A stretch of DNA of 64,000 nucleotides, taken from IMG/VR virus record IMGVR_UViG_3300033121_002003, positions 1,764 through 65,763 of that record. One strand, written 5' to 3'. Positions 48,603 through 56,418 of this stretch are shown here, one piece after another (within the stretch, counting starts at the first letter, position 1; each line of letters starts with the position of its first letter). The notes under the pieces are model-generated. The model saw nothing but the letters and a program-made list of their open reading frames with translations, did not search any database and had not been told where the DNA came from. Both the position numbers and the translations under genes were made by a program. The stretch is from a virus. Lineage: Duplodnaviria; Caudoviricetes.

Positions 48603-49244
48603 CTAGCCGATGGGATAATACCCCTTCACATCCGCCTTGGCCAATAGCTCCTCCCCGGTCTTGGGATGCTCGATCCGGTGATTGTAGCTGCCATCCGCGT
48701 TCTTGGGGAAATTCTTCATCCCGGTCTTGATGTTTTCGTACTTAATCACCTCCCCGGTCTTGGGATCCTTCACCTCAGCCTGTGCCCGCCACTGGGTCTC
48801 GATCTCCACGGTCACATTCTCCCCACCCAGGGTCTCCACCAGCATCTGCTTCAGGTGCCCCAGGCTGCAGGTCCGCGGCGGAGGATTGCCACAGGCCTTC
48901 AGGATCTCATGCACACGGGTGGTACCCGTCCGCATCTTCATGGTGTTGGCGTTGTCAAACACAAACAACCCATCCTCGGGGCTGCCGGGCGCCATGATCT
49001 TCAGGGCAATCGGAACCTGGAGATACGGATCCCCAGTGCCCTCCCCCTTCTTCTCCCCTTCCTTGCGCTGGCGATGGATCTGAATCGGCTCATCCGCGCC
49101 TTGCGGAGCTTTGCCCAAGCAGATAATCGCCTGATGCCGGCCATCGGGCGGCGGCGCCGGCTGTGCCCAAGGATCTTCTACCTCGGCGTATTCCACTTCC
49201 TGATTCAGCAGGTCCTGCAATTGTTCATCGGTCATTGTCGACAT
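48603..49244 (-). CDS. putative single-stranded DNA-binding protein (DUF669-like)
   Basis: PAPPPDGRHQAII OB-fold-like start; lies downstream of Sak4-like ATPase; followed by terminator. Confidence 0.55.
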   Translation of the reverse strand: MSTMTDEQLQDLLNQEVEYAEVEDPWAQPAPPPDGRHQAIICLGKAPQGADEPIQIHRQRKEGEKKGEGTGDPYLQVPIALKIMAPGSPEDGLFVFDNANTMKMRTGTTRVHEILKACGNPPPRTCSLGHLKQMLVETLGGENVTVEIETQWRAQAEVKDPKTGEVIKYENIKTGMKNFPKNADGSYNHRIEHPKTGEELLAKADVKGYYPIG

Positions 49245-49275: not shown

Positions 49276-49491
49276 CTAGCGGTCAAAACTTTTGGTTTGG
49301 TTTGCGGTTGCAAGCTGAATAGCCTTTACTATCTGGCGATCCAACTCATCTTCTTGAGCGGTAACCGGACATGTAGCCCGCACCCACTCAAACAATTCCT
49401 TCAGCCGGGACAGCTGTTCGGGGGTAACAATCAGGGCTATTTCCCTACCCAGCTCCCTACCCTGTTCATTTTCCTGCCTTGGCATACCCAA
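49276..49491 (-). CDS. hypothetical protein
   Basis: 71-aa ORF. Confidence 0.45.
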   Translation of the reverse strand: MGMPRQENEQGRELGREIALIVTPEQLSRLKELFEWVRATCPVTAQEDELDRQIVKAIQLATANQTKSFDR

Positions 49492-50545
49492 CCACCCCTT
49501 CCTTTTCTAGAAACTGAACAAACTGTTCCATACCCCGGAACTTCCCATCCTTATCCACACCCATGGGAATAAACCCGCCCGGAAACTGCTTGCACAGCTT
49601 AGCTGATTTTTCCAAGCTCAAGCTGACCTTGCAGGGCCAGGACGCCTTCATCACCGTCGGCTCCGGATGCCTTAGAAAATAAGCCTTAAACACCCGGCTG
49701 TCCGGGTTTTTGGGGTCCTCCCAATCCACATCCAACCTAAACGCATGGGCAAAGTTCTCCGTCGTCCTGCTCACCAGCGCCTTGCCGATGGTCGCCGGCC
49801 CCAGCGCCACCATGGCTTTGTTCAGCTCATCCTCCCCTTTGGATTCGTGGCTGGTCCAGATACAATACTCCACCGGCAAGGCCTTAAACGCCGGCCACAG
49901 GCGGTTCCTCAAAATATTGTGGATATGGTTGTAATGGGCTCGTCCCCCTTGGCCCTCGGTGATCTTGAACTTCTCCGGGCTGCCATCCACCGGCAGGGTC
50001 AATTCATAACTCCCCACTACATCCTCCGCGATCTTCAACCTGTTCCGGATCATCTGTGCCATCAGCATCTGGCTGATTACCGCGGCGCCCTCTACCAACA
50101 TGAACTTTACTTCCTTGGCCCGATCCGGCGGGGTTTTGATCAACCTGATTTCATTCCCCATAATTTTGGGCCAGAACCCCTGGCCCACCGCTGACAGCAC
50201 CTCCAGGGTAGAGGTAGTGGTGGCCAGATCAAACGCCTCAATCTTTCCGTCTGGATTCTCCGGAGACTGAATCAAATCCACCAGCGGCGCAAAGCTGGAG
50301 TCCCCGGTTATCAATCTTCCATGCCAGCCCCAGGTGTTTACCAAATACCTGGCAATCTCTCCCAGCTGGCTGGTTTTGCCCGTATCACTGGCCCCATATA
50401 GGAGCATGAACTGGGACTTGCTAGCCCCTATAACCGCAGGCCTAACCGGCGGTGGGGATTGGGATTGTGTTGTGGGGTTGGTGGCTGGAGTAGCCCGGGT
50501 AGGTGTCGGAACTGCCGTAGCAGTCCCCGATCCGATCGTAGACAT
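49466..50545 (-). CDS. AAA_24/Sak4-like recombination ATPase
   Basis: MLLYGASDTGKTS, FMLVEG, CIWTSHE, GPATIGKAL. Confidence 0.75.
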   Translation of the reverse strand: MSTIGSGTATAVPTPTRATPATNPTTQSQSPPPVRPAVIGASKSQFMLLYGASDTGKTSQLGEIARYLVNTWGWHGRLITGDSSFAPLVDLIQSPENPDGKIEAFDLATTTSTLEVLSAVGQGFWPKIMGNEIRLIKTPPDRAKEVKFMLVEGAAVISQMLMAQMIRNRLKIAEDVVGSYELTLPVDGSPEKFKITEGQGGRAHYNHIHNILRNRLWPAFKALPVEYCIWTSHESKGEDELNKAMVALGPATIGKALVSRTTENFAHAFRLDVDWEDPKNPDSRVFKAYFLRHPEPTVMKASWPCKVSLSLEKSAKLCKQFPGGFIPMGVDKDGKFRGMEQFVQFLEKEGVVGYAKAGK

Positions 50546-50643: not shown

Positions 50644-50937
50644 TTAGAATCCTACTCCCCCCGCCTTAATGTTGTCAACCAATTTCTTTTGGACATGATG
50701 CAGTTTTTTATTCCCCACCTCAAACGCCCGGCAGGGCCACCGAAAAGGGATAGACCAATCCGGACGGTAATATACTAGGGCCCCACAGGCATAAGCCTGA
50801 TACTGGTACCATCCCAACAAAGTAGGCCCATTGGCTGGGGTCGGAGCCATCAAACTATCTGCCCCGCAATCAGGGCAGTAATGCTGCGGTCCGGTTATTG
50901 GAGGGCTGGGCATCATCAAACTCCTGGGCATCATCAA
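50644..50937 (-). CDS. zinc-ribbon protein
   Basis: YCPDCG ... YACG ... WPC. Confidence 0.5.
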   Translation of the reverse strand: MMMPRSLMMPSPPITGPQHYCPDCGADSLMAPTPANGPTLLGWYQYQAYACGALVYYRPDWSIPFRWPCRAFEVGNKKLHHVQKKLVDNIKAGGVGF

Positions 50938-51379
50938 ACTCCTTCTTTGTTATTCCTACGATCTTATCCGCCGCTGACAAAGTCTGAGCAATATAATGCA
51001 TCAGCCTAGGATCGGTTTTGGCTGGCCCAGCAAGCCCCCCTCGAGGAAGGTTATCCAAAATTTCCCTTATCTTATCAGCCGCAAACAGCCGCTGTTGTTG
51101 GGCCCCCCATATCCCACCTATCAACGGCGCCCCCGGGTCATTGCACAAATCATATCCCGCCCAGCTAAGGGGCGGATTTCCCCGATACCGATCCTTTTCT
51201 CTCCCCAATACCTCTCTCACTATCTTTCGCCACCGACGGGTATTTGGCAATTCCCAAGCACGCTGCCGTAGCATTTTGAAACGGTTTGGCAGCCGGTCTT
51301 TTACCCGCCACCCCACCATCCAAGACATCCACAGCTTCTTGCTATTCTGTTGATACGGCCACGGTATTGGCTTTGGCAT
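50870..51379 (-). CDS. hypothetical protein
   Basis: Start ATG 51379 after AAGGAGG; 18-bp tandem duplication near 3' end (EFDDAQ x2). Confidence 0.55.
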   Translation of the reverse strand: MPKPIPWPYQQNSKKLWMSWMVGWRVKDRLPNRFKMLRQRAWELPNTRRWRKIVREVLGREKDRYRGNPPLSWAGYDLCNDPGAPLIGGIWGAQQQRLFAADKIREILDNLPRGGLAGPAKTDPRLMHYIAQTLSAADKIVGITKKEFDDAQEFDDAQPSNNRTAALLP

Positions 51380-51390
51380 CTTGTTCCTCC

Positions 51391-52743
51391 TTATCCCAAA
51401 TCCCCCAATATCCCAGCCACCGATTTCTCCAGTTGCTGCTGATACCGATACCCTTCCATCCCCTGGATCTCCAACCCCCCAATCTTCTCCAATACCGCAT
51501 CCGCCCGGGCCTGCCACACCCACAACCTATCCGAATCCTTATGCAACACCCGGATCACTTCCTTTTCCACCGCCAGGGTCCGGTAGCGCTCCAACAACCC
51601 GCCCTCATTTCCAATCACCACCCGATTAGCTAATCGCACCAACCCTTCCGCCAGGCACATCTGCTCCATTTCGGTCTGGAAATCCGCCAGGTCCGTAATG
51701 GGCTGACCATCCTCCGTAAACTCATCCTCCCGGATTCCCCCTTCCCTAATAATCCGCTGGTAACAATCCAACGCCGTCCCAACCGCTTCATCCTCCCCCT
51801 TGCCTAGCATCAACGCCCCCAGGCCCTCATGCACCACAATCCCTGTGGCTAGGGGAATGGCCGTGGCTTTGGGCCTCACCCCAAACCCGCCATAATGATA
51901 TTCCAACCACCGGCTTAGTTCACACCGGTGGCGCTGCAACACCCGGCTACGGTCCACCCAGATAATCTCCCTCCCCCGGGCATATTGGGTCAGATCTTGG
52001 ATCTTCAAAGCCAGCTGTTCATCCACCATCCCCAAATCCAAACAGGTTGAATCCTGAATCTGAACCAATCCGGCTTCCGGCCCGTGATGCGGCTTCCGGG
52101 GCACAAACTTCTCCGGATCGTTGATATCCAGGGACTCATGGCAATACCCATAAAACCCACACCGGCTGGGCCAAACACAACTCCTGGTTCCATCCTCAAT
52201 AAACTCTGCTATTCCCTGCTCATCCAGTTGATCGTGCCCGGTGCGCTGGGTCCAAGCCTGCTCAGCCCAGCTGGTCTGCCGCCACCATCTCTGAATCTTC
52301 TCCGGCTTCCGGTAATAAAGCGCCGGCTCCATCACCAGCTTCCCCAACTCCATCCCCAATCCATCCTTGGTGGGATAATGCCGCCCCTCCATCAGCATAT
52401 CCACCCATTCCTTGCTCCCCATCTCCTGCCACACCGCAAACTTCTCCCACTTAGGGCTGACATACTTGGGCGAGTATTGCCACTCCCCTTGGAGGGATTT
52501 GTAGGCATTCACCAGGGGAGATTGCTGGATCCGCCTCCCATCCTTTTCCTTCTTCCTATACCCTTTCACCAAATAAACCATCTTCACCGCATAGATATCC
52601 TGGCCCAGCTCCGCCTCGTGAGCCCAGGTTTCCGATATCCCCTGCATATCCACTTCACCGTCAAGGACGGTGCGTTGGTCGGTATTGCTGGCGGTCTTCC
52701 AACTAAGGAGATGAATCTCCTTTGCGGGTTGTTGATTTTCCAT
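51391..52743 (-). CDS. Cas4/AddB-like PD-(D/E)xK nuclease, apparently circularly permuted
   Basis: SWKTAS and CxxxxxCxxxxxCH occur before DRSR...RCELSRW...GIVVHEGL...AVEKE...RADA. Confidence 0.7.
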   Translation of the reverse strand: MENQQPAKEIHLLSWKTASNTDQRTVLDGEVDMQGISETWAHEAELGQDIYAVKMVYLVKGYRKKEKDGRRIQQSPLVNAYKSLQGEWQYSPKYVSPKWEKFAVWQEMGSKEWVDMLMEGRHYPTKDGLGMELGKLVMEPALYYRKPEKIQRWWRQTSWAEQAWTQRTGHDQLDEQGIAEFIEDGTRSCVWPSRCGFYGYCHESLDINDPEKFVPRKPHHGPEAGLVQIQDSTCLDLGMVDEQLALKIQDLTQYARGREIIWVDRSRVLQRHRCELSRWLEYHYGGFGVRPKATAIPLATGIVVHEGLGALMLGKGEDEAVGTALDCYQRIIREGGIREDEFTEDGQPITDLADFQTEMEQMCLAEGLVRLANRVVIGNEGGLLERYRTLAVEKEVIRVLHKDSDRLWVWQARADAVLEKIGGLEIQGMEGYRYQQQLEKSVAGILGDLG

Positions 52744-52815: not shown

Positions 52816-53088
52816 TTAGCCATTCACCACCTCCTGAGTCAATTCCCGTCTCCCTTCCTTCATCGCTTCCCGATCTTCTTCATCCCACCCCTCCCTGCAT
52901 TGCTGATATACCTCCGCCGCGGCTGCTCGTGCTTTTTCCCTAGCCACCTTCATCATCCTCAACTGCACCGCCCGGCCGCGCATCTTGGCGGCTAGCCACT
53001 CTGCCCCTTTGGGGTCCACCCAACACATCCCCCCTACCATCCCGGGGATGGCCAACGCCAACCCCCCTGTCAAAATCAATGCATCCAT
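52816..53088 (-). CDS. membrane-anchored hypothetical protein
   Basis: MDALILTGGLALAIPGMVGGMCW TM segment then basic helix. Confidence 0.5.
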   Translation of the reverse strand: MDALILTGGLALAIPGMVGGMCWVDPKGAEWLAAKMRGRAVQLRMMKVAREKARAAAAEVYQQCREGWDEEDREAMKEGRRELTQEVVNG

Positions 53089-53130
53089 TTCTGATCTCCT
53101 ATTCCTTTCTACTTTGATAACCAATCCCCA

Positions 53131-53160
53131 ATAAAAAAGGGGGCCGCTCGGACAGCCCCC
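53131..53160 (-). terminator. rho-independent terminator
   Basis: - strand GGGGGCTG-TCCGAG-CGGCCCCC-TTTTTTAT. Confidence 0.8.
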
Positions 53161-53191
53161 TCTTTCCCACAACCCCGATCATTGATCGGGA

Positions 53192-54933: not shown

Positions 54934-56418
54934 TTGGTTATTCCTTTCCTTCCCTATTCCCTTTCCCTTTCTCTATTCCCAAATAATCCTCAATCGCGGC
55001 TTCACCCGCTCTCATCACCGCCCTTAGTAACCACTCCTGAAACCCCCGGGTGTAATCCGCCTGCCCACTGTAATGATGGGCCAGCTCCTCCAAAATCGTC
55101 ATATCCAAATCCTCCCCACCCACCTCCATGTTGATCTGCACCTGCCGGGTCTTGGGATTGTACTGTCCTTTGGTAATCCCCCCTTGCCCCGGATGCTCCC
55201 GAAACCCCACAAACTCCGGCCGCGGCTTTCGGGCATCCAATCCCCACTTCTCCACCCGCTGGCACCATTCAAAACACCGGGCCAGGTTCAGCCCCGCTAG
55301 GGGCTGTTCTTGCCATCCTTGCTTGGCCATATCCCCAACCACTGTCGCCACCGTCGGCCCGCCCATGTTCTCCACTGCATGCGCCCAGCCCGGCGGCACC
55401 ACGATGGCCTTCAATCCCCTGGCCCTGGCCACCTCCGCCGAGGCCTCCGTAGCCGCCAGCACCCCTTTCTCCCCCAATCTCTCCGCCAGCTCCTGCTTAA
55501 TCCCTTCCTTCTTCTGCCAGTCGTAGCTGGTGAGGGAATACTCATTCAAAAACTTCCCCTCCCACCAATCCAACTGATCTTCCCTACCCCCCAGCTTCAT
55601 CACCATATCCGCGTAGATCTTGGGATCCGCCGTCAGCAACCCCCCTACCTTGTAAGCAATATCCCAATCACTCGCTTTCCGGGCCTCATCCACATCCAAA
55701 TCCTTGAAATTGTAATCAAACAAACTGTTCTTTGCCTGATCCCCCTCCCCGCTCCACTGCCGGATCAATACCCCCCGGCGATAGAACCGGGGCGGCCCGG
55801 GCTTCTGCTTCTCAATCGGCCCGTACTGCTGCCGCAGATTCCCCCCCTCCCGGCGGAAGTGCAGAAACATCGCCTCCAACCCCGCCTGCAGGTAATCCTG
55901 GGTAGTCCCCTCCCCGGCCTGCTTCACTCCCCACGGGATGTAAATCCGAGTCTCCCCCGACTTCGCCCGCGGCGGTTTGGTAGTCAACCCTACCCCAACT
56001 CCGGCCGGATTCCCTCCAACCTCATCCAGAGCATTGCTGACAAACTCCCTCACAGGCATCCACAGGTCATTCCAATCCCTCTCCCCCATCTGAATCACTG
56101 AGCCATAACTCTTCCACCCGCCCCCGTCCACCCGATACAAAATCTCCTGATGCTCCTTGGCCCGGACCTGGATCTTGCCCAGCCCAAACTCAATCTGGCG
56201 GGTGCCCAGATAAACCCGCGGCAACCTCCCCACCCGTGCCAACTGGGCCACACTATACTTAATCCCGCTACCAAACATCCCAATGGTATTGGGATCCTGG
56301 GCATCTTTATCAGAGGCCCCCATCAACAAAAACCCTTCCAGGGGAGCCACCCCCGGATTAGTGATCATCAACCATTCCTGATTGTTATCAGCCATTTGGT
56401 TATTCCTTTCCTTCCCTA
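54929..56418. repeat. 28-bp exact direct repeat pair (54929-54956; 56391-56418)
   Basis: gccatttggttattcctttccttcccta at both positions, covering RBS + start codon of two consecutive genes. Confidence 0.9.
54938..56395 (-). CDS. GHKL (Hsp90/MORC-like) ATPase with C-terminal zincin-like segment
   Basis: ITNPG...MGASDK...IGMFGSGIKYS; REFVSNALDE; C-terminal TILEELAHHYS. Confidence 0.65.
   Translation of the reverse strand: MADNNQEWLMITNPGVAPLEGFLLMGASDKDAQDPNTIGMFGSGIKYSVAQLARVGRLPRVYLGTRQIEFGLGKIQVRAKEHQEILYRVDGGGWKSYGSVIQMGERDWNDLWMPVREFVSNALDEVGGNPAGVGVGLTTKPPRAKSGETRIYIPWGVKQAGEGTTQDYLQAGLEAMFLHFRREGGNLRQQYGPIEKQKPGPPRFYRRGVLIRQWSGEGDQAKNSLFDYNFKDLDVDEARKASDWDIAYKVGGLLTADPKIYADMVMKLGGREDQLDWWEGKFLNEYSLTSYDWQKKEGIKQELAERLGEKGVLAATEASAEVARARGLKAIVVPPGWAHAVENMGGPTVATVVGDMAKQGWQEQPLAGLNLARCFEWCQRVEKWGLDARKPRPEFVGFREHPGQGGITKGQYNPKTRQVQINMEVGGEDLDMTILEELAHHYSGQADYTRGFQEWLLRAVMRAGEAAIEDYLGIEKGKGNREGKE

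Follow-up and report, generated by a model that had tools for sequence, protein, structure and literature searches.

The stretch of DNA analysed here (the window, 64,000 nucleotides) comprises bases 1764-65763 of a 65.8-kb IMG/VR virus record (IMGVR_UViG_3300033121_002003; Caudoviricetes), the estimated completeness of which is 59%. One gene on its minus strand, 51391..52743, encodes a protein of 450 residues, referred to below as P0001. In a preliminary description this protein was proposed to be a Cas4/AddB-like nuclease in which the two halves of the usual chain stand in swapped order. The open reading frame (ORF) is uninterrupted, and the motifs quoted in that description were all found where it had placed them. 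An AGAGG lies 8 nt 5' of the start codon (ATG 52743). The stop codon (TAA) occupies 51391-51393, and the GGAGG and ATG of the next gene follow directly after it. The gene and its parts are as follows (positions in the window, strand, description).

51391..52743 (-), whole gene, P0001: circularly permuted protein of 450 residues, a predicted PD-(D/E)XK nuclease with a predicted iron-sulfur (Fe-S) site, in one open ORF
52066..52728 (-), usual C-terminal half, residues 6-226, matching positions 150-392 of the canonical profile hidden Markov model (HMM; E 5.6e-60) and also by BLASTP
52696..52704 (-), motif III, S14-W-K16, with the predicted catalytic Lys, on the first beta strand of the chain (residues 10-18 in the model)
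52630..52650 (-), D32-M-Q34-G-I-S-E38 (DMQGISE), conserved helix motif downstream of motif III, invariant
52141..52179 (-), C189-x5-C195-x5-C201 (CVWPSRCGFYGYC), predicted Fe-S ligands, C-terminal in the canonical family, invariant
52084..52092 (-), P218-H219-H220, conserved end motif of the canonical C-terminus (RxPHH)
51967..52065 (-), linker, residues 227-259, from the old C-terminus to the old N-terminus, containing M239 (ATG 52027-52029)
51484..51966 (-), usual N-terminal half, residues 260-420, matching profile positions 4-148 (HMM, E 1.2e-40; BLASTP)
51922..51924 (-), C274, the lone Cys, N-terminal in canonical relatives, predicted fourth Fe-S ligand, invariant
51829..51831 (-), H305 (GIVVHEG), conserved His of the first core helix
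51559..51567 (-), E393-K-E395 on the core strand preceding motif II, both Glu invariant
51499..51507 (-), motif II, R413-A-D415, with the predicted catalytic Asp, in the final core strand (residues 406-420 in the model)
51394..51483 (-), C-terminal tail, residues 421-450, with the conserved motif SVAGILGD; a low-confidence helix in the model

Residues 6-226 contain the motif III strand, the DMQG..E helix, KGxR, a beta-rich insertion, the Cys cluster and PHH; residues 260-420 contain DRSR, the lone Cys, the H305 helix, the EQ..L.E helix, the VEKE strand and the RAD strand. The order of elements along P0001 is motif III, Cys cluster, linker, Cys, His helix and motif II, and departs from that usual in RecB-family and Cas4-type nucleases (Cys, His helix, motif II, motif III, Cys cluster). 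The DMQGISE helix motif may correspond to QhxxY in the RecB-family nucleases, and E393 and E395 are candidate metal ligands.

Relatives were collected in two ways, by word-indexed search and by exhaustive HMMER search over cluster representatives. Together these gave 526 at E <= 0.001; 171 proteins were retrieved. A profile of 399 positions (A1) was built from 46 proteins of canonical order. The profile matched the window ORF with positions 150-392 and then, downstream in the same frame and with no stops between, with positions 4-148 (E values as listed above). Two high-scoring segment pairs (HSPs), again swapped, were obtained by BLASTP against each individual canonical protein, including P0015, a relative positive for PF12705 (5e-25 and 5e-20), and the half order proposed in the preliminary description is borne out by both methods. 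Most of the retrieved proteins (147 of 171) are canonical: by BLASTP, their N-terminal ~150-190 residues correspond to residues 260-440 of the query, and their C-terminal ~230 residues to residues 4-225. Eleven full-length proteins plus fragments were colinear with the query. The canonical relatives were not, and the possibility that both halves simply follow a colinear homologue family can be set aside. When profile A1 was run over 65 other loci (viral and metagenome contigs), the usual order was found in 65 of 65, and the swapped order was found only in the window and in the P0013 loci. Judged by these sequence comparisons, the swapped order of P0001 is far above chance.

The link of P0001 to the PDDEXK_1 and Cas4 families goes, at the level of sequence, via its canonical relatives. 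Four of these (P0015, P0017, P0019 and P0024) matched PF12705 (PDDEXK_1) colinearly with 27.5-49.5 bits (gathering cut-off 22), and some canonical members matched PHROG 1218, annotated as 'exonuclease'. PHROGs gave no usable match for P0001 or its halves. A tblastn search against GenBank phages gave no match, nor did a scan of viral contigs with the canonical P0014 as the sole query.

The arrangement recurs beyond one assembly, which disposes of misassembly, named in the preliminary description as a possible refutation. A total of 34 full-length permuted proteins (403-477 residues, 10 clusters) was found on several dozen contigs from JGI/IMG, ENA, Logan and NCBI; wherever the source gives any name, they are called 'hypothetical protein'. 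All 34 break at one position of the profile, with the start near 151 and the end at 148-152, and they diverge down to 48% identity. One subclade (P0001-P0008 and their cluster-mates) is 73-90% identical to the query and has a C-terminal tail of ~30-50 residues. Another (P0011-13), with 48-53% identity to the query, begins with MSE(F/I)xILSWKTA and ends just past motif II (..SRADA(L/I)(M/L)(R/K)RK..), without a C-terminal tail. The P0013 gene is one uninterrupted ORF in two different records, and the permuted gene was also found in syntenic loci, designated L001 and L002, from a Logan assembly and an NCBI metagenome-assembled genome. P0182 (56 residues, profile positions 151-188) and P0183 (404 residues, positions 198-392 plus 4-150), which lie on the same ENA contigs, are one permuted relative called as two ORFs; the split is probably due to a frameshift or sequencing error.

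For tree building, the permuted sequences were re-ordered by script and aligned to the profile (FastTree, 150 sequences). All 11 permuted proteins fell into one clade (support 1.0), nested in a clade of 16 leaves (support 0.98). The outgroups AddB, AdnA and Cas4 are all of canonical order; the permuted order is therefore derived and of single origin.

Residues invariant in the permuted set are S14, K16, D32, Q34, E38, C189, C195, C201, H219, H220, C274, H305, E393, E395, R413 and D415. Among these, C274, C189, C195 and C201 align with C17, C364, C370 and C376 of the canonical family, and D415, K16, H305, E393 and E395 are conserved in canonical members as well. In all permuted proteins, and in at least 90% of the canonical ones (S169), motif III has the form S-x-K in place of D/E-x-K. 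From the alignments, the Ser of motif III and the conserved E393/E395 on the preceding strand may be a case of active-site residue migration.

The new termini fall between motifs II (R413-A-D415) and III (S14-W-K16), as had been proposed. The cut opens the hairpin loop that leads from the motif II strand (RAD, D415) to the motif III strand (SWK, K16), and the canonical sequence at this position reads ..SRPDALLRER / STGxLYxxSFKT.. (the slash marks the cut). The linker, which lies between ..PHHGPE and ..IIWVDRSR, is ~15-40 residues long among relatives and poorly conserved.

A structure model of P0001 was obtained with AlphaFold2 (AF2). The input alignment (A5) consisted of the permuted proteins and the two halves of 14 canonical genes entered as separate rows, with key columns checked; a composite alignment of 41 loci had been dropped because MAFFT misplaced the Cys-cluster tails, and the 14 correctly aligned loci were used. 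The model has a mean predicted local distance difference test score (pLDDT) of 84.1 and a predicted template modelling score (pTM) of 0.85. Low confidence is confined to residues 1-3, to linker residues 227-239 (pLDDT <50) and to the tail. It opens with the motif III strand (residues 10-18), and its last core elements are two long strands, residues 387-402 (E393/E395) and 406-420 (D415).

Foldseek gave no match for the P0001 model at E <= 0.001, which we read as a limit of sequential alignment and not as a sign of a new fold. By VIA-align, the top matches were AdnA, AddB, ACE1, Dna2 and a putative exonuclease (Z 3.4-5.0), and AdnA, AddB, ACE1, Dna2 and Cas4 were matched half by half, in swapped order, with Z 2.6-5.0. 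In most top alignments residues ~250-423 of P0001 lay on the N-terminal part of the nuclease domains, at Z 3.8-5.0 against proteins that the canonical control also matches, several starting nearer 165; the C-terminal parts of Cas4 (8D3L), MGME1, Exo5 and LHK-Exo paired with residues 1-211. The model of the canonical control, P0014 (pLDDT 94.7), gave full-length matches to AdnA (Z 16.9), AddB (15.9), ACE1 (15.7), RecE (12.3), Dna2 (11.2), Cas4 (10.8) and SSO0001 (9.8). The fall from Z ~16 to ~5, with half of the chain aligned and the register swapped, is what a sequential aligner would give for a circular permutant. Compared with PDB sequences, the canonical alignment gave only a non-significant match, to SSO0001 (E 0.49), on the Cys/His and motif II/III segments.

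Two neighbours of the gene bear on its likely role.

49466..50545 (-), P-loop ATPase of 359 residues, downstream neighbour; homologues match AAA_24
48603..49244 (-), protein of 213 residues, syntenic partner of the ATPase; putative single-stranded DNA-binding protein (SSB), DUF669-like by ESM Atlas features only

The order nuclease, 359-residue ATPase, 213-residue protein is kept beside canonical and permuted nucleases at dozens of loci (tblastn). Placement of the gene in a Sak4/SSB recombination module had been part of the preliminary description. The Sak4 part stood: PF13479 (AAA_24, Sak4-type) was matched by 13 of 21 aligned ATPases, namely the window copy and 20 syntenic homologues (best E 1.3e-5), although the window's own ATPase had no Pfam or PHROGs match. 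The SSB part is a lead: the 213-residue protein had no Pfam, PHROG or PDB-sequence match, and its ESM Atlas feature score against viral clusters named DUF669 was 0.94. It has been reported that DUF669 proteins are distant SSBs found beside sak4 (PMC5928155). Phage phi47 carries a Cas4-domain exonuclease side by side with a DUF669 SSB and a Sak4-like AAA protein; the SSB and the AAA protein mend DNA breaks through recombination (PMC13687109). By analogy of family and neighbourhood, the permuted enzyme most likely carries out end resection that would supply an annealing system.

Several other genes lie nearby. Upstream of the module, a protein of 485 residues, 54938-56395 (-), matched PHROG 8203 (unknown function, E 6e-19); a counterpart with 43% identity holds the corresponding position in L001. 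The nuclease gene itself is flanked by 50870-51379 (-) (169 residues, with its own GGAGG-ATG start at 51379) and 52816-53172 (-) (118 residues). Neither flanking gene had a family-model match, and no counterpart of either was detected beside canonical nucleases.

P0001 is very probably a single-chain and presumably functional circular permutant of a phage RecB-family (AddB/AdnA/Cas4-like) PD-(D/E)XK nuclease with a predicted four-Cys Fe-S site. The natural permutant suggested in the preliminary description agrees with the HMM and BLAST order, the recurrence and monophyly of the arrangement, the confident single-domain AlphaFold model and the half-by-half structural matches set against the control. 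Nuclease activity, Fe-S binding and a role in recombination are inferred. In the ancestral order, the lone N-terminal Cys and the C-terminal Cx5Cx5C cluster would draw the chain ends together. In the permuted lineage the old ends would have been joined by a flexible linker (residues 227-259) and new ends opened in the loop of the catalytic beta-hairpin, so that the chain begins with the motif III strand and, bar a short tail, ends with the motif II strand. In the closed fold, the first and last strands would be neighbours within a single sheet, and the enzyme would bind an Fe-S cluster. The nuclease might then resect DNA ends to give single-stranded DNA (ssDNA) for the Sak4-like annealing ATPase and the SSB. 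The outcome would be recombination-dependent replication or repair of the phage, as proposed for the module of Cas4-domain exonuclease, DUF669 SSB and AAA protein elsewhere.

A number of observations weigh against this interpretation. No match was found in Pfam, including PF12705 (PDDEXK_1) and Cas4, for the whole of P0001 or for either half at E up to 10, and the alignment of each half to such models, proposed as a check in the preliminary description, gave no direct match; in a single pass, a linear HMM is unable to score a permuted chain. Single structural matches of P0001 are weak (Z <=5), as expected from sequential aligners, and are not proof. The S-x-K form of motif III may mean that the catalytic geometry is atypical. 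The tail has no detectable trace of a duplicated motif III strand, and an unfiltered six-frame HMM search for relic half-genes around the gene, in the window and in L001, gave no match below E 0.6.

Duplication followed by fusion and trimming, or fission followed by re-fusion, could have produced the permutation. The tail was considered as a fossil of a duplicated motif III strand, since the BLASTP alignment to P0015 ran on through it (LEIQGMEGYRYQQQLEK against ILSFKTASGFDYRRENEN). This reading was rejected: eight tails scored no better than shuffles against the canonical sub-profile (34-257 of 300 shuffles reached the real score). Three proteins, P0137 (262 residues, starting MGRADALL..), P0140 (257 residues) and P0155 (295 residues), cover only the part from motif II/III to the Cys cluster; they may be contig-edge fragments or stand-alone C-terminal halves, the latter being possible intermediates toward permutation. 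Canonical nucleases in two ORFs, in the usual order, were seen on two metagenome contigs, at L055:262-1368 (profile 4-126 and 136-269) and at L068:269-2194 (profile 2-92 and 86-203, ~750 bp apart); they might reflect frameshifts, insertion of an element or genuinely split genes. Seven canonical loci, L011 (3939-5954), L012, L013, L015, L016, L047 and L060, have ORFs of 610-720 codons, stop to stop, with an insertion of ~60-120 residues at profile position ~88-90, between the two N-terminal helices.

Other explanations were weighed against a single-chain permutant. That the gene is an assembly or annotation artefact, either a chimeric contig or collapsed tandem copies, could be suspected of a metagenome-derived virus record such as this one. 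The chance of it is negligible, and the reading is effectively refuted: the same order and break point recur in 34 proteins on several dozen contigs from four independent sources, at identities that fall to 48%, and this divergence excludes one mis-assembled template; the gene also sits in the syntenic loci L001 and L002, and its flanks hold no extra half-copies. It is highly improbable that the locus yields two polypeptides, the second half being translated from ATG 52029 (M239) and the halves assembling non-covalently via the Fe-S cluster. An in-frame ATG is present in the linker, which is poorly conserved and of low model confidence, and a bridging Fe-S cluster could in principle hold a split enzyme together; however, all 34 full-length relatives run uninterrupted in frame across the variable linker. 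The internal start, raised as a possibility in the preliminary description, did not hold up: Met239 lacks conservation, with P, A, V, L or a gap at this position in other members, and the sole purine run, GGGG, abuts the ATG without the spacing of a Shine-Dalgarno sequence, whereas the true start has its AGAGG at 8 nt.

Two further alternatives concern the active site. A domain-swapped oligomer, in which the motif III strand inserts beside the motif II strand of another protomer and the active site exists only in a dimer or ring, has precedents in the superfamily, where swapping of core elements is known (e.g., T7 endonuclease I; PMC3424549), and the new termini do lie at the active site. We consider it very unlikely, given the compact AF2 monomer (pTM 0.85), whose terminal strands both have high pLDDT. 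Decay or repurposing into a DNA-binding or scaffold protein that no longer cuts DNA is very unlikely too. It would fit the lack of an acidic residue in motif III, and viral Cas4 derivatives without catalysis are known (PMC4625639); but S-x-K is usual in canonical members too (S169, at least 90% conserved), and K16, D415, E393, E395, H305, Q34 and the four Cys are invariant across two subclades that are ~50% identical, a pattern typical of an active enzyme.

Several known systems come closest to P0001. AddB and AdnA (3U44, 4CEH, 6PPR, 9NP6) superpose full length on the canonical relatives, with Z 14.5-16.9 and 217-267 residues aligned. Like those relatives, they have one N-terminal and three C-terminal Cys, the H-helix, the motif II Asp and the motif III Lys, all of which are kept in the permutant. 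The chain order of P0001 is swapped relative to AddB and AdnA; it is a stand-alone protein of 450 residues without helicase domains, its motif III is S-x-K, and a family-specific beta-rich insertion follows KGxR. The Cys spacing in P0001 is Cx5Cx5C, and that in AddB and Cas4 is Cx2Cx5C. The Cas4 family (SSO0001, 4IC1; type I-C, 8D3L; Argonaute-associated ACE1, 9IAB/9IAC) has the same fold and four-Cys site as the canonical control. In contrast to Cas4, P0001 lies outside any CRISPR context, and its chain is permuted and about double the size. Genes of the kinds in the window, where the SSB is putative, are also neighbours in the 'Healer' genes gp61/gp63/gp64 of phi47 (PMC13687109) and with Sak4/SSB of HK620 (PMC5928155); the nuclease in the window differs in being the permuted form, and the window's ATPase and 213-residue protein have themselves diverged too far for Pfam or PHROGs to match.

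A natural circular permutation within the PD-(D/E)XK superfamily has been described in the Hef/XPF-type nuclease (1J22), in which the first helix is permuted (Steczkiewicz et al., 2012; PMC3424549), and this helix move is the sole permutation recorded for the superfamily in the literature found. P0001 is likewise a natural permutant of the same superfamily fold. In contrast to Hef, it is cut between two catalytic beta-strands, about half of a 400-residue protein has been moved, and it belongs to the Fe-S RecB/Cas4 branch. A search that left most subscription journals uncovered turned up no paper connecting circular permutation to Cas4- or RecB-like Fe-S nucleases, so that an earlier report is possible; a phylogenomic survey of Cas4 (PMC5704561) has no word starting with 'permut'.

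It is doubtful that the permutation is adaptive and not neutral. If it were, the engagement of DNA or of partners would alter once the ends had moved away from the Fe-S-stapled pole and into the catalytic hairpin. The enzyme might load on ssDNA internally, or on gapped DNA, with no free end to thread; the new C-terminal tail might be offered near the active site to the Sak4-like ATPase or the SSB; or the phage might evade host or satellite factors whose recognition depends on the canonical termini. The lineage would then be a natural case of circular permutation retuning an Fe-S nuclease.

For annotation, linear profile HMMs (Pfam, PHROGs) and Foldseek all overlook P0001. Natural permutants cut through a catalytic hairpin are rare, and they reveal which chain connections a fold truly needs. 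The Fe-S cluster of AddB, Dna2 and Cas4 is thought to staple distant segments of the chain. The lineage described here suggests that, once the stapled pole is joined covalently, selection can retain a chain that has been opened at the active site. With many canonical and 34 permuted forms in the same gene context, the part of the iron staple in folding and activity can be compared.

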